A stretch of 42,116 nucleotides of DNA from the sequence record MN850623.1; one strand, written 5' to 3'. The translations under genes and the position numbers were made by a program. This document shows positions 2,153 to 35,543 of the stretch, one piece after another (positions within the stretch are counted from its first letter, which is position 1; each line of letters opens with the position of its first letter). Below the pieces are notes generated by a model, which did no database searches, had not been told where the DNA came from, and worked only from the letters and a program-made list of their open reading frames with translations. Origin of the DNA: Escherichia phage sortsyn.

Positions 2153-4405
2153 ATGGAGAACACAATGGCCCGCGACGTATACGCTGATATTGGTATGCCT
2201 TCGACGCCTTTCCTACGTCTGGACCGCTTCGCGGCGCTGGTCAACGGGAAGATCTATGTAGGCGTGAAAGATACCGACCCGCTGAACCCAGCGAACCAGA
2301 CCCAGGTCTTTGTCGAGGACGAGGACGGAACGCTGACGCCAATCCCGCAGCCAGTACGGACCAACGTCTCCGGCTATCCGGTCTGGAACGGTCAAGTAGT
2401 CAAACTGATCACCAAGATCGAATCATCCATGAAGGTGATGGACGCGAACGACGTCCAGCAATTCTATTTCGGGAACCTGTTCAAATATGATCCGGTCCAG
2501 ATGTGGAACCTTCTCACCTCGCCGACTGGCTGGGAGTACGTGGGGACGAATTACGGCGTTTTGAAAGAGTCGATTCAGGGCTGGATCACTCCTTTTCAGT
2601 TCGTCGGGAAAGCGCCATTCACCAGCGTGTCCGCAGCCATCCAAACCATGTTTGACACGGCTCAGGCCCAAAAGCTGGCAGTCTGGGCCATTGGCTGGGA
2701 GGGAACGCTGGACGGCAACGTGACCGCGACGGATATCCTCATCATGGGGGGAACGTGGAAAGGTACGCCGGACTTTTTCATGGACAATTCCACGCTGAAA
2801 GGCGCGACCATCAAAAACGCCCGTATTCGCGTATGGGGCGGCGACGTAAGGATCCGCGATTGCCTGTTTGACGGCAAGCCGACCACGAGCAAGGTCGCAA
2901 GCGTAATGATGCAAGCCCTACCGAAAAACGCGACTGTGGAAGTCACGGAGAGCGAGTTCCGCAATGGCCTTTACGGCATCTTGCAGCAGGGGACCGGGGA
3001 ACTCGTCACGCGTGGCCTGTATCGTAACTTGTCGTTTTACGACATGGGCGGCGACGGGATCGAGCTTAACGTGGTCCAGCGCCACTACGACGACGGATGC
3101 GTGATCGAAAATATCTACCTGGAGAACATCGACTCCACCGGACAGGCTCCGATCAACCCGTCCAACTGGGGGATCGGGATCGGCGTCGCTGGTCAATCTC
3201 CGTATGGTATCGACACGCCGGACGAGAACTTCGCGAAGAACATCACGATCCGCAACGTGACGGGCGTCGGCGTCCGCCAGCTTGTTCACTTCGAAATGGT
3301 CCGCGACTCCGTGATCGAGAACATCAACGGCGACCCGGATCAGAACGTGTCTAACGGCTCCGGCCTGACGCTGGCGACGGTCCTCTGTTATGGCTCGCGC
3401 CGCGTGTCGATCGATGGAGTTCGCGGGGAGCCGATCGTCCAGTCCGGGACCCTGGCCTCCGACGTCCGCGTGGTTATGCTGGAGTGGGGGACTAACGCCG
3501 GAGTGGGCGCTCGTGGTCCTTGCCAGGACATGACCGTGAGGAACGTCTATTCCAAGACCGGGCGCTTTTACGCTGGCGTGGGTACGGAAAAGGCCGGGGC
3601 AACCAACCGTTGCCGATTCAGTAACATCAACGTGGCTAAATTCTCCGTTTTCGGCGTGGCTACCGAACTGGATTTAAACGATATCTCCGGCGATATCTTC
3701 GACGCGATCGGGGATGATTCCAGCGGCGGGACGCCTTCGAATGGTTATATCGCTGGCGGTCGCACCGTGTTACGCATGAATAATGTGAACTTCGGCGCGT
3801 ACCCGGATCAGGGCTGGAGCCGTTGCGCATACAGCCAGATTGATTGCGTTAATTCGAACGTGTTCGCCCGTCCGTACCCTCGTTCGGGGACTAACGGCGG
3901 CGTAGGCGCTGAAATGCAGCCCTCTAACCACACTTACCTGATCCCTACTCCTGACCAGATGGACGGCGTAGGGATCTGGGATGGTAACGCGTTCCCGACC
4001 GGGCGCGAGTTCATGGAGGGCGATCTCCTGGTCCGCAACGATGGCAAGATCTTTGCCGTCGAGACGTCCGGCGCATACCTCCCGGCGGTCGCAGAATTGC
4101 AGATTAAAGCGACGGCAGCGGGCCAGACCTACCTCGCGCAAAATTACGCGATGGCTGGCAACAAGTCGGATCAGGTCTGGTTTTATAAGACCCCACTGAC
4201 GCAGGGGACCCGCATCACGATCCCCGGAGCCGGGGCTGGCGGCGCGGCGCTTAACACGGTGATCACTCGCGCACCGTACAGCACCAACCCAAGCAACCCG
4301 ACCGCAGAGATCAGGATCGACATTGCGGACGCTATCGTGACTGGAACCGTGGCGGGCGTTCAACTGGCGGCAACGAAGCCGATCTCCTTCCGAACTCCGG
4401 TATAA
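2153..4405 (+). CDS. Tailspike protein: P22-type head-binding N-terminal domain plus parallel beta-helix receptor-binding/depolymerase domain
   Basis: N-terminus (VNGKIYVGVKDTDPLNPANQTQVFVEDEDG...YPVWNGQVVKLIT) matches the P22 gp9 head-binding domain pattern as recalled; central region has beta-helix-like repeats (NITIRNVTGVGV, VIENINGDP, MTVRNVYSKTG). Confidence 0.9.
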   Translation: MENTMARDVYADIGMPSTPFLRLDRFAALVNGKIYVGVKDTDPLNPANQTQVFVEDEDGTLTPIPQPVRTNVSGYPVWNGQVVKLITKIESSMKVMDANDVQQFYFGNLFKYDPVQMWNLLTSPTGWEYVGTNYGVLKESIQGWITPFQFVGKAPFTSVSAAIQTMFDTAQAQKLAVWAIGWEGTLDGNVTATDILIMGGTWKGTPDFFMDNSTLKGATIKNARIRVWGGDVRIRDCLFDGKPTTSKVASVMMQALPKNATVEVTESEFRNGLYGILQQGTGELVTRGLYRNLSFYDMGGDGIELNVVQRHYDDGCVIENIYLENIDSTGQAPINPSNWGIGIGVAGQSPYGIDTPDENFAKNITIRNVTGVGVRQLVHFEMVRDSVIENINGDPDQNVSNGSGLTLATVLCYGSRRVSIDGVRGEPIVQSGTLASDVRVVMLEWGTNAGVGARGPCQDMTVRNVYSKTGRFYAGVGTEKAGATNRCRFSNINVAKFSVFGVATELDLNDISGDIFDAIGDDSSGGTPSNGYIAGGRTVLRMNNVNFGAYPDQGWSRCAYSQIDCVNSNVFARPYPRSGTNGGVGAEMQPSNHTYLIPTPDQMDGVGIWDGNAFPTGREFMEGDLLVRNDGKIFAVETSGAYLPAVAELQIKATAAGQTYLAQNYAMAGNKSDQVWFYKTPLTQGTRITIPGAGAGGAALNTVITRAPYSTNPSNPTAEIRIDIADAIVTGTVAGVQLAATKPISFRTPV

Positions 4406-4458: not shown

Positions 4459-4743
4459 TCAGCGTAAGATCGTCCAGTCATTGGCGAACAGGTCGCCCTG
4501 TGATGGGACCCAACCCGGTTGCATTACGCCTTGCGCATTTTTAAGATCAAGATGCGGGGCGATCGTAAATTCGCCAGTGATCCCGGCCTTTGCATAATCA
4601 CTACCCGGTCGCGGCTCGTTTACGGTATACCCGCCAGCCTTGATCACGAATTGATTAGCGCCATTCCATCCAGCGCGGGCAATTTTATAACCTTCCTTCA
4701 CTGCGATCAGAGCTTCGCTAAAGCTAAGGCCGGACTTAATCAT
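4459..4743 (-). CDS. DUF2829-like small phage protein
   Basis: 94 aa with GWNG...WVPSQGDLFANDW signature recalled for DUF2829; overlaps the upstream HTH gene by 8 nt. Confidence 0.5.
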   Translation of the reverse strand: MIKSGLSFSEALIAVKEGYKIARAGWNGANQFVIKAGGYTVNEPRPGSDYAKAGITGEFTIAPHLDLKNAQGVMQPGWVPSQGDLFANDWTILR

Positions 4744-4954
4744 GATTCACTCCATACTCGATCAGGTCTGCGATCGACACGTCCAGGGCGGCAGCGAGTC
4801 GGCAGAGGTTAGTAATATGTGGCAACTCGTGCCCGTTCTCGTATCGGCTCAACTGGTGGGCGATCATGCCTACGCGTTCCGCCAGATCTTTTTGCTGGAT
4901 GCCTTTCGCCTCTCGGACCTGCTTCACGAGGCAAACGGGCTTTAATGTTGCCAT
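4736..4954 (-). CDS. XRE/Cro-type helix-turn-helix transcriptional regulator
   Basis: HTH pattern QKDLAERVGMIAHQLSRYENG; AAGGAG Shine-Dalgarno 7 nt before the second ATG (4954); ORF track start 4969 is the alternative. Confidence 0.75.
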   Translation of the reverse strand: MATLKPVCLVKQVREAKGIQQKDLAERVGMIAHQLSRYENGHELPHITNLCRLAAALDVSIADLIEYGVNHD

Positions 4955-4986
4955 GATCGGCTCCTTCATTGGTTAACGTCTCCGTG

Positions 4987-10399: not shown

Positions 10400-10424
10400 A
10401 ACCGGGAAAACTCAGGAGGGCAAG

Positions 10425-11243: not shown

Positions 11244-11248
11244 AAAAA

Positions 11249-11270
11249 AGCCCCGGCGAGGGGCTTAATG
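11249..11270. terminator. Hairpin with A8 run upstream; strongest as a minus-strand terminator
   Basis: Stem GCCCC/GGGGC preceded by AAAAAAAA, followed only by TTAATG on the plus strand. Confidence 0.35.
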
Positions 11271-15538: not shown

Positions 15539-15568
15539 AAAAAGGGGGCCAACTGGCCCCCGATTTAT
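15539..15568. terminator. Rho-independent terminator, bidirectional, between convergent blocks
   Basis: A-run, stem GGGGGCC/GGCCCCC, then GATTTATT. Confidence 0.7.
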
Positions 15569-16086
15569 TGCTGACGCTCCACGGCGTCGTAATTCCTTTC
15601 GCATACCTCCCCGGCGGTGATCGCCTTCTCCGCTATATCAGCATACCGTCCAGCGACTTCGCCAGTCCGTCGTAACAGGTCGGCGTACATTCTGGCGGTC
15701 TTTTCCCCTGACGCCCTTCCGAGGGCAGCGGTCTGATCAGCGGCTTCGCGTCGGGTGGCTTCCTTGCTGGCTCGTTCGAGCAACCGATCAAGGGCAGCGC
15801 CAGCAGTAGCAGCAGCGGCGCGAGCTTTTGCGGCTTGTTCATTCGCATATTTTACGGACTCCTCGCGGGCAATGGCCCGGCCTTGTTCAATGATACGGGC
15901 GGCGGCTTGTGCGTTCGCTTCCTGGGTGGATTCCTTCGCGATCCTGGCATTGTCGCGAGCGGTCCAGCCCCGGTCCGTCCAGGCCGAGCCAGCCCAGAAA
16001 GATCCCCCCAGCGCCAGCAGCACGACAACGACGAGCAGCAGCGATCGCCAGTGAGTCGAGAGGAACAACCGGAGGGCGGCGATCAT
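15565..16086 (-). CDS. Rz-type inner-membrane spanin
   Basis: N-terminal TM helix (SLLLVVVVLLALGG), Ala/Arg-rich coiled-coil periplasmic domain, ATGA overlap with endolysin stop. Confidence 0.8.
   Translation of the reverse strand: MIAALRLFLSTHWRSLLLVVVVLLALGGSFWAGSAWTDRGWTARDNARIAKESTQEANAQAAARIIEQGRAIAREESVKYANEQAAKARAAAATAGAALDRLLERASKEATRREAADQTAALGRASGEKTARMYADLLRRTGEVAGRYADIAEKAITAGEVCERNYDAVERQQ
15633..15848 (-). CDS. Rz1-type outer-membrane lipoprotein spanin, embedded out of frame in Rz
   Basis: Lipoprotein signal with lipobox LIGC, Pro-rich mature part, entirely inside the Rz gene in another frame. Confidence 0.75.
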   Translation of the reverse strand: MRMNKPQKLAPLLLLLALPLIGCSNEPARKPPDAKPLIRPLPSEGRQGKRPPECTPTCYDGLAKSLDGMLI

Positions 16087-16562
16087 TCTCCGGCTACCTT
16101 ACCGCCAGCAGCGCGGAAATATTTCAGGAAGTCGTCGATCGTCTCCGTCCGTTGTCCATACTTCGAACCCGGCAGGGAGGCCCAGATGTTATTGACCTTT
16201 GCCACGGCTTCGCGGATCCGGCCCGCGTCAATATCCGCCAGCGCTTTACGCTCGCTGATCTGCTGGAGGGCGATCTGGTCCTGTGACGCCGGGGAGAAGT
16301 CGGGGAGGTTTAGCTGGTCGATGTAATGCTCCGCATACTTCTTAAGCACCTGATAGCGGCCCGCCGCCGTGGAGTTAATGCCGAGCTTCGGCAGCTTCAC
16401 CAGTCGGCCCGGATGCTTCGAATAGTCGGAGAACAGGGAGCCGCCCACGATCACGTCGTAGCCGTGATTTTTGGTCTGCTGGCGACCGTTGTCCGTACCT
16501 TCGCCCACGGCGATCGCGTCCAGAAACGCCTTGCGCTGTGGCGTAACTTCAAATTTTGCCAT
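16083..16562 (-). CDS. Endolysin, lambda R-type lytic transglycosylase
   Basis: RKAFLDAIAVGEGTDNGRQQTKNHGYDVIVGG...AAGRYQ...NIWASLPG is near-colinear with lambda R as recalled. Confidence 0.95.
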   Translation of the reverse strand: MAKFEVTPQRKAFLDAIAVGEGTDNGRQQTKNHGYDVIVGGSLFSDYSKHPGRLVKLPKLGINSTAAGRYQVLKKYAEHYIDQLNLPDFSPASQDQIALQQISERKALADIDAGRIREAVAKVNNIWASLPGSKYGQRTETIDDFLKYFRAAGGKVAGE

Positions 16563-16902
16563 CGGTCTGATCCTCTTTGCTGGTATGCGCTGGAGTGGCG
16601 CGGATTTTTCTCAGGAATGGGATCTTTTCGCTGGCCCAGTCGAGCGCAGTCTCCACGCCGACGTAACCCAGGAACACGGAAGCGAGATAACCCCACGTAC
16701 CATGATCGACCCCGAAGAATGATAAAATATTATTCATCCCGAACGCGACGGCAGCGCAGATCGCCCCGCCGCTGACGATATCGCGGAACGGGTGGCGCAA
16801 TTGCCAGTGACGGAACACCGCCACCGATGCCGCGATGAATGAATAACCTAACTCAACGCGGTATAGCTGAAACAATTGCCATAGCGTCGTATGCTCAGAC
16901 AT
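16549..16902 (-). CDS. Holin, lambda S-like
   Basis: LASVFLGYVGVETALDWASEKIPFLRKI parallels lambda S ITSVFIGYIGTDSIGSLIKRF; start moved to Met at 16902 because the ORF-track N-terminal extension contains the upstream terminator hairpin. Confidence 0.8.
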   Translation of the reverse strand: MSEHTTLWQLFQLYRVELGYSFIAASVAVFRHWQLRHPFRDIVSGGAICAAVAFGMNNILSFFGVDHGTWGYLASVFLGYVGVETALDWASEKIPFLRKIRATPAHTSKEDQTDGKI

Positions 16903-16947
16903 TGGAGGGATCCCTTTTAACAAGTGAGTGAACGCTAAAAGGGTAAA

Positions 16948-16976
16948 TGAAAAAAGAAAGGGCCGCAAAGGCCCTT
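16948..16976 (-). terminator. Rho-independent terminator immediately upstream of the lysis cassette
   Basis: Minus-strand stem GGGCC-TTTGC-GGCCC followed by TTTCTTTTTTC. Confidence 0.6.
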
Positions 16977-17000
16977 TTATGATTGATTGTTAAGTTATTG

Positions 17001-17312
17001 TTATTTTCCAGAAAGAAGGCGTAAGGCGTCCATAGGCGATTCCGCGCCTTCTAACTGTTTGGCGAAGCCCTCCGCAGCCTTGCGCAGCGTGTCCACGTCC
17101 AGGAATGCACGATCGCGGGCCGCTTCCGCTTTCTCGTAGGAGAACTCTCGATCCTCCTCCTGATCGTCCGGGTGGAACACCAGGTTAAACGACAACTCCG
17201 CGCCCTGGATCTCCGTTATCAGGTTGATCGCCGGATTCTCGTCCGAGTCAACGCCACGGCGGACCAGAACCTGGCGATCGTGTGCTTCAAAAACATGTGC
17301 GAAACGTTCCAT
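17001..17312 (-). CDS. Hypothetical protein
   Basis: Start at internal Met with GAGGT SD (ORF track 17417). Confidence 0.45.
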   Translation of the reverse strand: MERFAHVFEAHDRQVLVRRGVDSDENPAINLITEIQGAELSFNLVFHPDDQEEDREFSYEKAEAARDRAFLDVDTLRKAAEGFAKQLEGAESPMDALRLLSGK

Positions 17313-17317
17313 AATAT

Positions 17318-17554
17318 TTACCTCTTGCCTTTGACCTGGAGCCGCTGACGACGGCCCCGCGTTTTGTTGTTGTACTCCTCGTGGGATAACAGATCCCACG
17401 TCTCCCCCTCGTCCCACGTCACGAGCCGCCAGCTATAGCCCACGTTGAACGCTGATACCTTGCCGAACCCCTTCAACCGCTTAGGCGCGATCTCCTTCGC
17501 GTAGTAGCGGGCCAGAATCTCGTCGGCCTTCCGCTGGACCTTCTCCGGGATCAT
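17318..17554 (-). CDS. Hypothetical small basic protein
   Basis: Start ATG overlaps the stop of the upstream gene (ATGA), so coupling rather than a frameshift. Confidence 0.45.
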   Translation of the reverse strand: MIPEKVQRKADEILARYYAKEIAPKRLKGFGKVSAFNVGYSWRLVTWDEGETWDLLSHEEYNNKTRGRRQRLQVKGKR

Positions 17555-17969: not shown

Positions 17970-18218
17970 TTAATACTCGTCGGCGCGGATCTTGTTACGG
18001 TGGATCAGGCGATTCAGTTCGAACTCGCCGCGAGTCATGAACTCGTCCACGCGTTCCTCCTGTTCCGGCTCCTCGCCTGTTAATTCCGGCGCTTTCCATG
18101 AGAGATAGCGCTTAACTGTGCCAGTTTTCACGAACGCCGGGAGCAGGTTTTTAAAGTTACGTGACCACTGACGCCCGCGCTCTTGATCGCCTTTTACCAT
18201 GATTGTTAAGTTTGCCAT
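17970..18218 (-). CDS. Hypothetical protein, first gene downstream of promoter cassette copy C
   Basis: 82-aa ORF beginning 47 nt after the cassette -10. Confidence 0.45.
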   Translation of the reverse strand: MANLTIMVKGDQERGRQWSRNFKNLLPAFVKTGTVKRYLSWKAPELTGEEPEQEERVDEFMTRGEFELNRLIHRNKIRADEY

Positions 18219-18900: not shown

Positions 18901-19340
18901 CTCTCTTTCCTCATGGCTTGTTTACATTGTAAGGCAGCGAGGGCCAACTCCGGGCCAATCTCGACGCCTGGGGGGAACTCCATCGGATCCGACACTGGCG
19001 GGGCCAGCTTCGAACGGTCAACGCGCAGATCACGCAGCAGTCCGGCGCGTTCCATCTTTGCCGTGTGACGGCAGAGCGCGGAGAGCTTCCGCTGGTCAAC
19101 GCCGGGGCATTCGAAGAACGCGGCGAACAATTGCTCCGACGGCTTAAGCATGGAGAACGCTTTCCGAGTCTCGTCCGTAGGTACGAACGGATCGATCAGC
19201 CCCTTGTCGATAGCGTCCAGCACCGACAGATCAGTGGGCGCTATCTTGTCGAGTATCTCCTGGCGCTTCTCCGCCGCCGTCTTGCGCGGCGCTCCGGCGG
19301 TAGCCGGGGCCGTAGTTCGCTTCTGTTTGAATAAGTCCAC
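18897..19340 (-). CDS. Hypothetical protein, first gene of the minus-strand block
   Basis: GTG start with GGAGG SD; ATGA-type overlap with next gene. Confidence 0.5.
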   Translation of the reverse strand: MDLFKQKRTTAPATAGAPRKTAAEKRQEILDKIAPTDLSVLDAIDKGLIDPFVPTDETRKAFSMLKPSEQLFAAFFECPGVDQRKLSALCRHTAKMERAGLLRDLRVDRSKLAPPVSDPMEFPPGVEIGPELALAALQCKQAMRKER

Positions 19341-19367
19341 GTTCGCCTCCGTTGTTGTTCGTCTTTA

Positions 19368-19395
19368 AGCATACATGACGTAACAGTGATGTAAA
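19368..19395 (-). promoter_or_regulatory. Putative sigma70 promoter for the minus-strand block 19340 to 15565
   Basis: Minus-strand -35 TTTACA, 16-bp spacer, -10 TATGCT in the AT-rich divergent intergenic region. Confidence 0.4.
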
Positions 19396-19480
19396 GAGTT
19401 TTCTTTACTGGTGCGGATTGACGGCGTTATGAATCACTGTTAAGTTATGAACACTTTATTAACGCAGCAGGGAAAAGACA

Positions 19481-21169
19481 ATGACTGATTATGATGAAGT
19501 AATGCCGACACCAGAGCGCAGCGAGGAGGAGCTGATCGAGATGGTCCGGGGCGAGTTCTCCGGCCCGGTAACGCCTCCACCTGCTGACGACGTGCCAGAG
19601 GCTCCTATGGAGTTCTACGAGGAACAGGCCAGCCTGTACGCGGCGAGAGAAGCAGAATCCGCCCAGGATGCCGGGGCGTTCTTCGACTTCGACGAGCACG
19701 AGGCCGCAGAGTGGACGGCAACCGTCCGCAACGACAAGCCGACGATCGTCAAGACGTCCGACCTCACCGACGAGGAGAAGGACGAAGCACGTCGCCAGGA
19801 ACTCCTCGCGAAGCAGCGCGAGAAGCAGCGCAAGAAGATCGACGAGGCGCTGGCGGTCGAGGCAATGGACGACCCGCTGATCGCCAGCCTGAACAAGTCG
19901 AACGAGATCAAGCCCGTTAACTATGTGATCCAGTCGCTGATCCCGGAGCGCTCCGTGGGCTTCCTGGTCGGCGAGTCCGGCGCAAAGAAAACGTTCGCAG
20001 CGTTACAAATGGCGATTTGTGTCGCCACCGGGATCGACTTCGGCGGCTTGCCAGTCCGACAGGGATCCGTGATGTACTTCGCGCCGGAGGATGCGAGCGG
20101 CGTCCGTGAACGTTACGCGGGATGGAAGTACACGCAGAACAAGAACGAGCCGTTACCCAACTTTTGGGTATTGTCCCAGCAGGTCCCACTACACCGCGAG
20201 AGCGAACTCCAGACGTTCGCGGCAACCATCAAGGCGTCCCCGTTCTTCGGCCTGAACCCGCTTTCCCTGATCGTGATCGATACCTACAGCGCCAACAGCG
20301 CGGGCCAGAAAGTGGGCGAGCGCATGATCCCAGGCAAGGGCGACGAGCCGGACCGCTGGGAGGGCGGGACCGACTTCAACGAGAACGACAACAACGTGGC
20401 GGCGATCCTGATGCGTAACGCGGCGTTACTGGCTGAATGGCTTAACTGTGCCGTGATGATCATCCACCACACCGGGAAGGACACCGAGCGAGGCGCTCGT
20501 GGCGCGTCAACCCTCCGCGCTAACGCCGGATTCGAGATCATGGTGAAGAAGTGCAGGGACAAGGAGCTTTTTGTGATTGAGCACACGAAGGCCAAAGGCT
20601 GTGCGCTTCTCCCGGCGCGAGCCATGCGCACGAAGTCCGCGAAGTTACCGCCTGACCTGGTGAAGATGAAGCGCGAGGCGCTGGCGAGGATGCAGCCTGT
20701 ACGCCCGGAGGCGAAGGCCAACCCGGCGGCGTGGGAGATCGGCGACAACCTGGGGACGCTGGTCGTCATTAACGCGCTGGAGGCAGTGCCAGCCGAGAAG
20801 GACGAGGGCGAGAAGCCGGAGGACACGCGCAAGCGCAGCAAGAAGGAGGAACAGGCGATCCGACTGCTGGCCTACGTCGTGGAATACTCGCAGCAGCGCA
20901 AGGACAAGGGCTACCGCTTGCCGAAGCTGACCAAAGGCATGTTATCCGATCACTTCCGCAACTTCGCAGAGCCGCCGATTAAGCGGACGGACTTTTTCCA
21001 CGCCTTCGAACATGCGACCAAAAAAATGATGATCATCAAAATGGCAGGGGACGAAACGCTGACCGCCTCAACCGAAGCGGCTCCGCTCCTGGGTGGAATC
21101 CGGGATCAGAAGCCACTCCCGACCGACTGGAAACCGACCGAAGGATCCGACGATCTGAGTGACTTTTAA
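19481..21169 (+). CDS. RepA-like AAA_25/RecA-fold ATPase, putative replication initiator-helicase
   Basis: GFLVGESGAKKTFAALQMA (deviant Walker A), Walker B LIVIDTYS, IIHHTGKD motif typical of RepA/DnaB-like ATPases; acidic N-terminal region. Confidence 0.65.
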   Translation: MTDYDEVMPTPERSEEELIEMVRGEFSGPVTPPPADDVPEAPMEFYEEQASLYAAREAESAQDAGAFFDFDEHEAAEWTATVRNDKPTIVKTSDLTDEEKDEARRQELLAKQREKQRKKIDEALAVEAMDDPLIASLNKSNEIKPVNYVIQSLIPERSVGFLVGESGAKKTFAALQMAICVATGIDFGGLPVRQGSVMYFAPEDASGVRERYAGWKYTQNKNEPLPNFWVLSQQVPLHRESELQTFAATIKASPFFGLNPLSLIVIDTYSANSAGQKVGERMIPGKGDEPDRWEGGTDFNENDNNVAAILMRNAALLAEWLNCAVMIIHHTGKDTERGARGASTLRANAGFEIMVKKCRDKELFVIEHTKAKGCALLPARAMRTKSAKLPPDLVKMKREALARMQPVRPEAKANPAAWEIGDNLGTLVVINALEAVPAEKDEGEKPEDTRKRSKKEEQAIRLLAYVVEYSQQRKDKGYRLPKLTKGMLSDHFRNFAEPPIKRTDFFHAFEHATKKMMIIKMAGDETLTASTEAAPLLGGIRDQKPLPTDWKPTEGSDDLSDF

Positions 21170-21422
21170 CGGGGCGTTGTGTTCCGTTAACGTTATCCCC
21201 TCTCTTATAGAGAGAGGGATAAACGCGTAACGTTAACAACATATGCCGGAAAGTCTAAACAACGTTAACTATGAACTGAAAATTAACATAACAGATTCAT
21301 GAAGTTACAAGAGAAGTGTTAACAGGTTTATGGCAAATCGTTAATGCGGAAATCAGGGGGTAAAAATCGGGGGCCACCCCCGAAAAATCCCCGCTTAAAT
21401 AATCATTGATAAGTGATGCGAA
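21170..21422. other. Candidate replication origin: AT-rich non-coding region with GTTAAC-containing iterons and a ~28-bp imperfect palindrome
   Basis: 253-bp gap after the RepA-like gene; GTTAAC at 21186, 21232, 21254, 21318; AACGTTAAC repeated; palindrome TATCCCCTCTCTTATAGAGAGAGGGATA at 21195-21222; GC hairpin GGGGGCCACCCCC. Confidence 0.45.
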
Positions 21423-21611
21423 ATGAGCGACGATAACAACGTGATTTTATTCCCCCGACGGACAGCAGTCGGACAGGTTGAACCAGCACGATCGAACCAC
21501 TGGATCGAACGGTTCGGATTGTGGAATTACTTCCTGATGGTGGCGACAACCATCGGCGCGATCGTGGTCGGACTGGCGGCGATCGTGTTTAACATGCTGG
21601 GCCTGATGTGA
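21423..21611 (+). CDS. Small membrane protein
   Basis: 62 aa with C-terminal hydrophobic helix. Confidence 0.4.
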   Translation: MSDDNNVILFPRRTAVGQVEPARSNHWIERFGLWNYFLMVATTIGAIVVGLAAIVFNMLGLM

Positions 21612-25774: not shown

Positions 25775-26064
25775 TGGCGGTCGATAAGGGGCGCACCGTC
25801 GCCCGCAGCAAGGCGGAGGCAAGGCTGATAAAGGCTAAACTGTATCGCGGCCCGGAGTGCAAGATCCACGCGGGCAACTTCACCCGGTACACGTCAAACG
25901 GCGCTTGCATCATGTGCGCCAGCCTGACGGAGCCGAAGGGCAAGAGCCGGGGCTACATCGCCAAAAAGCGCGACGTCCAGGCGTTTAACCATCCCGTAAG
26001 CCCCTGGCCTATCACCGCCGAGAATATGCACCTTTGCCCGGATCTCTCGTTTAAGCGGACTTGA
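25774..26064 (+). CDS. Hypothetical Cys-containing basic protein
   Basis: TGATG overlap with upstream stop; RGPECKIHAGNF...GACIMCA. Confidence 0.45.
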   Translation: MAVDKGRTVARSKAEARLIKAKLYRGPECKIHAGNFTRYTSNGACIMCASLTEPKGKSRGYIAKKRDVQAFNHPVSPWPITAENMHLCPDLSFKRT

Positions 26065-26137
26065 TCACGCTTCCGTAACCGCCGATAATCCTCCGCGTAA
26101 CCCTGTGACACTCAGGCGATAACCGGAGGATTTTTTT

Positions 26138-26692
26138 GTGGCTAACGAGCAGAATTTAAAAAAGGGGAACAAGTTCTCCAAAGACAACCAGCCAGAGCGA
26201 CGCGGGAGGGCCAAGCAGAACCGGACCTTACTCCTCGAAGCCCTCCGAAAAGTACGCGTTAAGGAAGCGACCGGGCGCAGGATTGAGGATATCGATCCCG
26301 ACACTGGCGAGGTGAAGCTGAACAGCGAAACGGGCGAGCCGATCATGGTGGACGAATATGTGGAGGTCCCGCTCACGGAGGACATGTTCATCCAGCGGGC
26401 GATCCAGATGGCACTCGTAGACGGCGGCATGATGCGCGATATCATGAGCCGACTCATTCCCTACACGAAGCCCACCAGCCCGACCTATTGCTTTGAACTG
26501 ACCGGATCCACCCCGTCCGAGCGCATCACCGAGATCGAGGACCTGGTGGCGAATGGGGAGCTACCGTTCGACGCGGCGGAGGCAATGGTGAAGATGATCC
26601 GCCACGGCGCGGAAGTGTTCGAAATGTCCGAGATGGTCAAACGTCTGGACGCACTGGAGGCCCGACTGAATGGCGACAAAGAAGGCGAATAA
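26138..26692 (+). CDS. Terminase small subunit (putative)
   Basis: GTG start with GGAGG SD; N-terminus KKGNKFSKDNQPERRGRAKQNRT typical of small-terminase DNA-binding regions; sits just upstream of terL. Confidence 0.55.
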   Translation: MANEQNLKKGNKFSKDNQPERRGRAKQNRTLLLEALRKVRVKEATGRRIEDIDPDTGEVKLNSETGEPIMVDEYVEVPLTEDMFIQRAIQMALVDGGMMRDIMSRLIPYTKPTSPTYCFELTGSTPSERITEIEDLVANGELPFDAAEAMVKMIRHGAEVFEMSEMVKRLDALEARLNGDKEGE

Positions 26693-28743: not shown

Positions 28744-29295
28744 ATGATTATGATCGGCATTGTGGACTATGACGGCGAGATGGTGGCTTGTAAGCATTGC
28801 GGAGAAGTTAAGGCAAGGACGCCGGATAACTTCGCTACTACGTCCGGCTATAAGGGGCGTAAATATGTTATGAAGGTATGCCGCAAATGCAAGAACAGCA
28901 GACACGCAGACAGGCAGCGGAAGAAGCGCGAGGCGGAGCCGGAGGTGGATCAGGCTATGCGTGAGGCAGTGAGGCGACACCGGGCAACCGGGCGAGGCTA
29001 TGCGGTATGCAAGATCAACACGTACCGAAGCCGTGACCGAAAGAAGGGCATGGAGTGCGATCTGGATCCAGACTGGTATCTGGAGAACATCACCGCCAAG
29101 CCCTGCTACTCATGCGGAGAGACGTCCGACACTATGGGCGCGGACCGCATAGACAACGACCTGGGACACATCAAGGGCAACGTTTTACCCTGCTGTGCTG
29201 ATTGCAATAGAATAAGGGCGCACCGTTTTACGATGGAAGATATGCGCGACCTAATCGGGCCAGCTATCGCAAAAGTGAAGGCAAGGCGGCTATAA
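28744..29295 (+). CDS. HNH endonuclease (free-standing, between terL and portal)
   Basis: GADRIDNDLGHIKGNVLPCCADCNRIRA HNH core plus Cys4 zinc ligands; AGA/AGG/ATA codon usage unlike neighbours. Confidence 0.8.
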   Translation: MIMIGIVDYDGEMVACKHCGEVKARTPDNFATTSGYKGRKYVMKVCRKCKNSRHADRQRKKREAEPEVDQAMREAVRRHRATGRGYAVCKINTYRSRDRKKGMECDLDPDWYLENITAKPCYSCGETSDTMGADRIDNDLGHIKGNVLPCCADCNRIRAHRFTMEDMRDLIGPAIAKVKARRL

Positions 29296-35513: not shown

Positions 35514-35543
35514 AAAGGGGAGCCATTGGCTCCTCTTTTTTTA
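35514..35543 (+). terminator. Rho-independent terminator after the coat gene
   Basis: Stem GGGGAGCC/GGCTCCTC then TTTTTTT. Confidence 0.8.

Follow-up and report, generated by a model that had tools for sequence, protein, structure and literature searches.

To our knowledge, there is little documentation, beyond T4, T7 and lambda, of how small virulent phages that carry no late regulator of the Q, sigma or Ogr type prevent early lysis. The present analysis concerns the leader of a holin gene in Escherichia phage sortsyn (sequence record MN850623.1), a 98-nucleotide (nt) region on the minus strand (positions 16,903 to 17,000) between the last of six small open reading frames (ORFs) and a lysis cassette. 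The window, as we call the whole stretch of 42,116 nt, is a complete or nearly complete Murrayvirus genome of 42 kb. Several described systems place a regulatory structure at a comparable position. In phage T4, long early transcripts of gene e, which encodes lysozyme, and of soc, 49 and I-TevI fold an inhibitory hairpin at the ribosome-binding site that hides the Shine-Dalgarno sequence and/or the start codon, and late promoters located inside the DNA coding for this hairpin's 5' strand yield a translatable RNA without that strand (PMC3014915). At the 5' end of the lambda S holin gene, the sdi stem-loop involves the ribosome-binding region and tunes initiation (PMC3359269). Intrinsic terminators also stand ahead of lysis genes in the Plys leader of mycobacteriophage Ms6, as far as the citation of Garcia et al. 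(2002) in PMC3111421 describes it, and ahead of the alpBCDE genes controlled by AlpA (PMC7969949).

In its logic the sortsyn holin leader looks more like T4 gene e than like the lambda Q system, working in the manner of gene e without being a member of that group. As in T4, a lysis gene lies downstream of early transcription, and a hairpin (H2) is predicted to mask its Shine-Dalgarno (SD) sequence; the -10 element of a putative promoter, a weak sigma-70-like one, overlaps or abuts the 5' arm of this hairpin. Unlike in T4, the masked gene is the holin and not the endolysin, and an additional intrinsic terminator (H1) is found just upstream, with the putative -35 element inside its loop. The T4 late promoter TATAAATA was not found in the leader, and neither a sigma-like protein nor a gp55/gp33 system was recognised in the 42-kb genome. 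The lambda S gene shares with this locus a stem-loop at the start of a PF05106 holin gene; however, sdi sets the S107/S105 ratio of two in-frame starts, whereas translation of the sortsyn holin has one start only (MSEHTT...), and H2 would mask the SD completely, at about -13 kcal/mol. What is of interest in the gap is this conserved SD-masking hairpin, together with a likely nested promoter of the T4 gene e kind. The parts of the leader are the following:

16957..16977, minus strand: hairpin H1, with 5' arm AAAGGGCC (16977-16970), loop TTTGC (16969-16965) and 3' arm GGCCCTTT (16964-16957)
16949..16956, minus strand: T-tract CTTTTTTC directly after H1, which together with three T's of the stem reads TTTCTTTTTTC (16959-16949)
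16933..16943, minus strand: 5' arm of H2 (anti-SD), CCCTTTTAGCG, in RNA CCCUUUUAGCG
16923..16932, minus strand: loop of H2, 10 nt, TTCACTCACT
16912..16922, minus strand: 3' arm of H2, TGTTAAAAGGG, in RNA UGUUAAAAGGG, holding the holin SD (AAGGGA, 16916-16911)

We consider it probable that H1 and H2 act together as a transcriptional and translational insulator. The fuller model, to which we give somewhat less than an even chance, takes the region between the homologue of gp04 of Enterobacteria phage IME_EC2 and the holin gene as a two-layer insulator containing a weak nested promoter. H1 and its U-tract would stop most of the transcription arriving from a strong divergent early promoter (about 19370-19395) after six small ORFs. 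RNA that reads through would carry H2, in which CCCUUUUAGCG pairs with UGUUAAAAGGG, so that the holin ribosome-binding site would be masked and poorly translated. Productive holin mRNA would start at about G16933 from a weak promoter of the sigma-70 type, lacking the anti-SD and leaving the SD free. Such a promoter would give a low, steady supply of holin and thereby a lysis clock independent of the strength of the upstream promoter.

H1 begins 23 nt past the TAA codon of the gp04 homologue (17003-17001). It comprises 8 pairs, 5 of them G-C, around a 5-nt loop (consensus pattern scan), folds alone at -13.1 kcal/mol and is followed by 7 U in the next 10 nt (CUUUUUUC). The initial annotation had noted a GC hairpin and a T-run on the minus strand about 45 nt before the holin; this can be read directly, with 46 nt between the T-run and the ATG. 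Terminator-like matches in the window only modestly exceed shuffle expectation (18 versus 10.1, 14 versus 11.9 and 21 versus 18.7), and the pattern alone is therefore weak evidence. That H1 is more than a chance match follows from its conservation. Furthermore, the 116-nt leader folds with a z-score of -4.28, and none of 200 shuffles folds as well.

The comparison set includes ST231, Lumpael, sortregn, KMB41 and Sortsne, with 83-90% identity to the window, and IME_EC2, which reaches 98% across the region of interest. A gap of about 98-100 nt precedes the holin gene in every relative. Among ten Murrayvirus and Sortsnevirus sequences, the stem changes from GGGCC:GGCCC to GGGGC:GCCCC and GGAGCC:GGCUCC with the loop TTTGC unchanged. 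In an alignment of the element (A3), 97% of cells are paired, against 32-63% with slid 3' partners, and three of the eight stem pairs are altered on both sides. A more distant set, found via the holin protein (60-68% holin identity), consists of Skarpretter, Kosakonia phage Kc166B, the metagenomic sequence L036 and UViG L018. At the same position these carry unrelated stems, ACCGCC:GGCGGU and AGCGCC:GGCGCU, each with a U-run. A covariance model built from close relatives put the Skarpretter element in the right place, though with a weak score (20.9 bits, E = 0.015), and did not detect those of L018 and Kc166B; because the alignment it produced was contaminated by other terminators, the distant hairpins were compared by folding each sequence separately. 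Compensatory changes in the H1 stem extend across ten distinct leader types from at least four lineages, and scans of viral, metagenome and genome collections for more relatives contributed one further leader type, L036. The hairpin travels with the holin gene, since it is present in L018 and Kc166B although the gp04 homologue is missing there. The U-tract is found in seven of the ten leader types. In Lumpael, sortregn and Sortsne it is replaced by TTGATTC(C/T)AC, with 2-4 U in 10 nt, and the stem is retained without a canonical terminator tail.

With its G+C stem, short loop and U-run shortly after a stop codon, H1 resembles the ordinary Rho-independent terminators within phage operons, which in this genome occur after the capsid gene, before the tailspike gene and at the ends of convergent units. 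It differs from them in that its loop is invariant in Murrayvirus and Sortsnevirus, in that it persists after loss of the U-tract in three relatives, and in its coupling to an SD-masking hairpin. H1 and the U-tract thus look like a canonical intrinsic terminator between the six upstream ORFs and the lysis cassette, from which we infer termination. Since this predicted terminator separates the cassette from the upstream ORFs, the initial annotation was right to conclude that the lysis genes would be expressed by read-through, by antitermination or from a nearby promoter. The region is symmetric, with an A-run upstream and a T-run downstream, and could also stop RNA made from the plus strand.

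Two further observations concern the surroundings of H1. Extended-10 promoter-like sites lie on the plus strand, antisense to the leftward transcription unit, at 16979-17007 and 18183-18212 (TGtTAAGTT and TGtTATTTT, 12.0-12.3 bits); they are partly conserved in relatives, and one is immediately beside the H1 terminator. In addition, the 15-nt motif ATAACTTAACA(A/G)T(C/G)A has 7 matches in the window against 2.3 expected, including one copy adjacent to H1 on its upstream side and a pair in inverted orientation over the divergent early promoters, one member of which overlaps the -10 element of TTGACG-17-TAAGTT:

16984-16998, minus strand: ATAACTTAACA(A/G)T(C/G)A site
19434-19448, minus strand: ATAACTTAACA(A/G)T(C/G)A site
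19375-19389, plus strand: ATAACTTAACA(A/G)T(C/G)A site
18200-18214, minus strand: ATAACTTAACA(A/G)T(C/G)A site
21403-21417, minus strand: ATAACTTAACA(A/G)T(C/G)A site

A role of this motif as a shared operator is doubtful, and probably to be rejected, because the copies in the divergent region change in ST231 while the copy next to H1 stays the same, without co-variation.

The gap between the T-run and the holin gene, on which the initial annotation reported no structure, contains H2 (16943-16912, -12.8 kcal/mol). This hairpin appears in both the minimum-energy and the centroid folds of the leader and is predicted to pair CCCUUUU with AAAAGGG of the holin SD. Each of the ten distinct leader types folds into it, with energies of -10 to -17 kcal/mol, and unlike the U-tract it is never lost. 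Between the window and Sortsnevirus-type phages the H2 arms are 98% identical, compared with 62% for the loop, 47% for the segment from SD to ATG and 47-49% upstream of H1. Within the close group the arms show no variation and are thus uninformative on pairing. In the distant lineages, compensatory changes turn CCCUU:AAGGG into CCCUC:GAGGG (Skarpretter), CCCCG:CGGGG (L018) or CCCC:GGGG (Kc166B and L036), and the arms always engage the purine-rich SD. A search of Rfam 15 at permissive E-values returned no known RNA family, the best matches scoring 18-22 bits (E 0.4-5) against thresholds of 49-56. A pairing of the attenuator type between AAAAGGG of the H1 5' arm and CCCUUUU of the H2 5' arm was considered and rejected as unconserved, the H1 arm of Sortsnevirus being AUGGAGCC. 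The idea of a repeated late-promoter motif was also abandoned, as CCCTTTTAGCG, TGTTAAAAGGGATC and GCCTTTGCGGC, the motifs of the gap, each occur once in the window or no more often than chance.

The degree of masking was assessed from the predicted cost of opening the SD. For the holin this cost is 8.2 kcal/mol, the fifth highest of 58 start sites and the second when the weak SD-anti-SD duplex is counted; in full leaders it ranges from 7.2 to 12.6 kcal/mol. A fixed pairing measure over positions -15 to -5 did not single out the holin, whereas the per-gene SD opening energy did.

Invariant arms with a variable spacer are also what would be expected of a site for a dimeric DNA-binding protein. 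The phage encodes a helix-turn-helix (HTH) protein of the XRE/Cro type (4736-4969), and its divergent promoter region carries lineage-specific operator-like repeats. H1 could accordingly be an ordinary operon end, and the inverted repeat of H2 a DNA operator or a 5' stabilising hairpin with no role as a translational mask. We regard this as very improbable. Two of the 11 H2 pairs are G.U, valid only in RNA of the mRNA sense and mismatched in a DNA palindrome. The arm motifs have no other copy in the window and none near any promoter. Moreover, the arms of the distant lineages change in sequence, stay complementary and always include the purine-rich SD, and the operators of the divergent region differ between the window and ST231, whereas H2 is identical in both.

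In Skarpretter (L020, about 3965-3985), an in-frame ATG lies in the SD arm of the masking hairpin, five codons before the annotated holin start (MRDLR-MSDT...). This extra start could give rise to a dual-start antiholin; the other lineages are without it.

The third element of the full model, a promoter nested in the two hairpins, would consist of these sequences:

16963..16968, minus strand: weak putative -35 element TTGCGG, in the loop and 3' arm of H1
16940..16945, minus strand: putative -10 element TACCCT, in which T1, A2 and T6 are retained and which overlaps the beginning of the anti-SD arm

The resulting TTGCGG-17-TACCCT is the best sigma-70-like candidate in the leader, at 7.4 bits. 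In 10 of the 12 relatives scanned, the best or second-best such candidate in the upstream 110 nt occupies the same position; in Kc166B it ranks third. Among these relatives the -10-like hexamer TAnnnT starts 41-44 nt and ends 35-38 nt before the ATG, and eight have the extended-10 TG. Skarpretter has a strong promoter at this position, TTGTGG-18-TGtTATATT, with 13.3 bits and TATATT as the -10 equivalent; Kc166B, L036 and L018 have TATCGT. The seventh base after the hexamer is a G in six of seven lineages and sits at the 3' end of the anti-SD arm. In sortsyn the predicted start is G16933, the last base of the H2 5' arm. In an RNA that begins at the predicted +1 the mask is absent, and the calculated cost of opening the SD is 0.4-4.5 instead of 7.2-12.6 kcal/mol.

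Several points weigh against a nested promoter, or against the importance given to the mask. The candidate is weak: over both strands (84 kb), 268 sites score as high or higher, and taken alone the element does not exceed chance. The -35-like TTG of Kc166B, L036 and L018 is either missing or placed 20 nt from the -10-like hexamer. The conserved position of TAnnnT represents no more than three or four independent lineages and is only suggestive, at a p of about 0.01 by our rough estimate, which is not a computed value. The invariance of the H2 5' arm is equally explained by its pairing with the invariant SD and needs no promoter. Late timing would not follow from a plain constitutive sigma-70 promoter alone. 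Predicted pairing of the SD is frequent across this GC-rich genome (median 0.49 paired), which makes masking as such nothing out of the ordinary. Finally, in the literature transcript data are published for no member of this phage group.

Such points leave room for a pure read-through throttle without any promoter in the gap, in which the lysis genes would be transcribed from the early promoter (about 19370-19395) alone. H1 would pass a constant share of polymerases, H2 would seldom admit ribosomes, and the two leaks multiplied would time lysis by a slow build-up of holin. Both hairpins are real and conserved, the nested candidate is no better than the background of the window, no late regulator was recognised, and partial terminators within operons are frequent in this genome, all of which fits such a throttle. 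Nevertheless, we think it somewhat unlikely. A mask of about -13 kcal/mol in addition to a terminator would leave very little holin; the relation of hairpin stability to translation reported by de Smit and van Duin is said to imply a large reduction, the size of which is our own estimate here. A tuned product of two leaks is hard to square with the loss of the U-tract in three relatives in which H2 is unchanged, whereas the model with a nested promoter would explain why three phages tolerate this loss while none has lost H2. The throttle also leaves unexplained the position-conserved TAnnnT with its G at +7, and two clear nested-promoter modules elsewhere in the genome.

Terminators within operons, often fused to promoters, are common in this phage and occur after the major capsid gene and before the genes for the scaffold, the gp44 homologue and the tailspike. 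The arrangement of the holin leader is for this reason part of the normal grammar of the phage and no special case. Two modules are directly comparable:

26061-26140, plus strand: leader of the gp44 homologue, the first gene of the packaging block, with a GTG start at 26138
35519-35541 (with promoter to 35554), plus strand: post-capsid terminator GGAGCC-ATT-GGCTCC followed by T7, with a -35 element TTGGCT in its loop and 3' arm

In the leader of the gp44 homologue, the promoter TTGATC-17-GATAAT scores 13.4 bits, and its -10 element overlaps an anti-SD, ATCCTCCG (26088-26095), which pairs with the SD arm CGGAGGAT (26124-26131); a T7 run and the GTG start follow. Throughout Murrayvirus and Sortsnevirus, the -35 and -10 elements and the two arms do not vary, unlike the loop. 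The SD opening energy of this gene is the highest of the 58 start sites, at 14.3-15.6 kcal/mol, and would fall from 15.6 to 1.9 kcal/mol in a transcript starting 7 nt past the -10 element. After the T-run of the post-capsid terminator there is an invariant -10 element, TATACT. The corresponding hairpin in Sortsne, GGGGCCTTTGTGGCC, is almost identical to H1, a likeness that suggests duplicated regulatory cassettes. It is therefore a conserved habit among these phages to fuse promoters into terminators and to place start points directly behind an anti-SD arm, and the holin leader would combine both, with a poor -10 element.

As a tentative and rather doubtful extension, Murrayvirus, Sortsnevirus and Skarprettervirus may share 'self-insulating promoters' throughout the family, namely host-type promoters nested in terminator and anti-SD hairpins. 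The packaging block, the post-capsid block and the lysis cassette would each be deaf to upstream transcription at both levels and expressed from their own start. The holin -10 element, degraded to TACCCT and doubling as anti-SD, would then provide a slow lysis clock without a dedicated late regulator.

If the model of the holin leader is true, ribosome-site masking of the T4 kind in read-through RNA would guard a lambda-S-type holin in an unrelated phage group with P22-like virions, and a terminator, a promoter and a mask would be compressible into less than 100 nt. This would offer a compact and portable insulator design for the engineering of synthetic phages or operons. It would also call for caution in annotation, as a terminator before a lysis cassette would not imply antitermination. 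Should the nested promoter be unreal, the element would remain a clear, though ordinary, example of a holin gene that is throttled twice.

The initial annotation had compared the locus with the lambda pR'-tR' arrangement, while recognising no Q-like antiterminator. The latter statement holds: no Q-, N- or AlpA-family protein was found with Pfam and PHROGs in the six upstream and four lysis-cassette ORFs, or with Pfam in 20 other small ORFs, and a sequence search of the PDB with five of the six upstream ORFs gave no match. Regulator or accessory matches in those scans were limited to a ParE-like domain, the XRE HTH protein and a Tad2-like protein. The comparison itself does not hold. The locus has in common with lambda an intrinsic terminator upstream of an S-family holin, an R-type endolysin and Rz/Rz1. 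Unlike in lambda, no Q-family protein, promoter or Q-binding or pause element was found upstream, the terminator directly follows a coding sequence (by 23 nt), and the structural genes are not downstream. In a position-weight scan, no sigma-70-like promoter upstream of H1 rose above background, the best scoring 6.2 bits and ranking about 510 in the window. The DNA there is the 3' end of a coding sequence that differs by lineage, the gp04 homologue in some and a ParE-like gene in others. The virion genes belong to another transcription unit on the opposite strand, and the lysis cassette is closed by a terminator at 15544-15561; since the structural genes lie in that different unit, there is no single late operon of the Q type. 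The analogy with pR'-tR' thus fails for want of a Q-, N- or AlpA-like protein and of a promoter upstream of the terminator.

A small protein of another kind, similar to Q or AlpA in action, might nonetheless make RNA polymerase ignore H1 late in infection. Several ORFs of the leftward unit are without detectable homology to known function, and AlpA of P. aeruginosa is a precedent for a non-Q antiterminator that controls lysis genes behind intrinsic terminators (PMC7969949); the Ms6 leader, as cited in PMC3111421 (Garcia et al., 2002), likewise holds a terminator. In both of these systems, on what that citation says of Ms6, the terminator lies in a leader after a dedicated promoter, and its bypass by antitermination has been proposed (Ms6) or shown (AlpA), whereas neither the promoter nor the factor is detectable in sortsyn. 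Among 36 ORFs scanned there was no match to the Q, N or AlpA families, and no promoter with a loading site was found upstream of H1, where the DNA is coding and variable between lineages. Antitermination would, in addition, leave the H2 mask in place, and three relatives have no U-tract to antiterminate. We therefore hold factor-dependent antitermination to be improbable.

The genomic context was established by mapping the genes of IME_EC2 onto the window, the minus strand of which corresponds to the plus strand of that phage. Four transcription units result. The leftward unit starts in the divergent promoter region (about 19340-19480), crosses the six small ORFs and the lysis cassette, and ends at the bidirectional terminator. 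A long rightward unit begins with the primase gene at 19481, continues with small ORFs, terminase, portal, scaffold, capsid, tail genes and tailspike, and wraps to about 4405. Two more divergent units begin near 10400. The main features of the leftward unit are:

19368..19395, minus strand: predicted sigma-70 promoter of the unit running into H1, TTTACA-16-TATGCT, its -35 block CTTTACATCA invariant in relatives
17318-17554, minus strand: small ORF two genes upstream of the holin, with a ParE-like toxin domain (PF24732, 5e-18)
17001..17312, minus strand: homologue of IME_EC2 gp04, 103 amino acids (aa), function unknown, the last ORF before the terminator, with its stop TAA at 17003-17001
16549..16902, minus strand: holin, 117 aa, lambda S family (PF05106, 5.3e-9, above cutoff; phrog_126, 4e-17), with its ATG at 16902-16900
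16083..16562, minus strand: endolysin (phrog_90, 2e-54)
15565..16086, minus strand: Rz-type i-spanin (DUF2514), with an Rz1 o-spanin ORF embedded at 15633-15848
15544..15561, both strands: bidirectional terminator closing the lysis cassette and the convergent rightward unit

Judged by these family matches, the genes downstream of H1 are a genuine lysis cassette of holin, endolysin and Rz/Rz1. The holin N-terminus reads MSEHTTLW; it has a single start codon, with the next Met at about residue 57, as in all relatives, and the Met-Lys-Met dual-start motif was not found in the window holin or its relatives. In Kc166B and UViG L018 the gp04 homologue is absent and the ParE-like homologue of gp03 stands directly before the terminator. 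From this adjacency, the ParE-like gene appears to be a conserved neighbour of the holin module.

In the position-weight scan, the divergent early promoters reach 11.8-14.8 bits. Their region (19340-19480, loci L002-L008) keeps the invariant -35 block CTTTACATCA. Its GTTAC/GTAAC-type repeats are specific to each lineage, with differences even from the window to ST231, which are about 90% identical overall; the region looks like a mosaic region of the immunity type.

Next to this region, the primase/helicase ORF (19481-21169, plus strand) has 562 aa where IME_EC2 annotates two genes (gp59, 515 aa, and gp58, 47 aa), reflecting either a fused frame in the window or a split frame in IME_EC2. The 254-nt intergenic region that follows (21169-21423) has GTTAAC four times (genome total 17, expected 4.8), (A/T)GTTAACG-type repeats and the palindrome GGGGATAACGTTAAC.../...CCCTCTCTCTATAAGAGAGGGG; it may be an origin or an array of operators. 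A terminator acting on the minus strand only lies at 21383-21367. Between the large terminase and portal genes, an AT-richer segment of 630 nt absent from IME_EC2 holds a cysteine-rich ORF of 183 aa (28744-29295, plus strand), which by its sequence resembles a homing endonuclease of the HNH type; several promoter-like sites surround it. The only clear HTH regulator of the phage is found beside an anti-Thoeris gene:

4459-4743, minus strand: Tad2-like anti-Thoeris domain protein (PF11195, 2e-22)
4736-4969, minus strand: XRE/Cro-type HTH protein, next to the Tad2-like gene

A good promoter-like site, TTGATT-17-AATAAT, lies at 5015-4987. Lastly, a strong hairpin with a T-run at 11248-11266 (minus strand), between the primase and methyltransferase genes, is oriented opposite to the local genes and would stop only antisense transcription, because there is no T-run on the coding strand.

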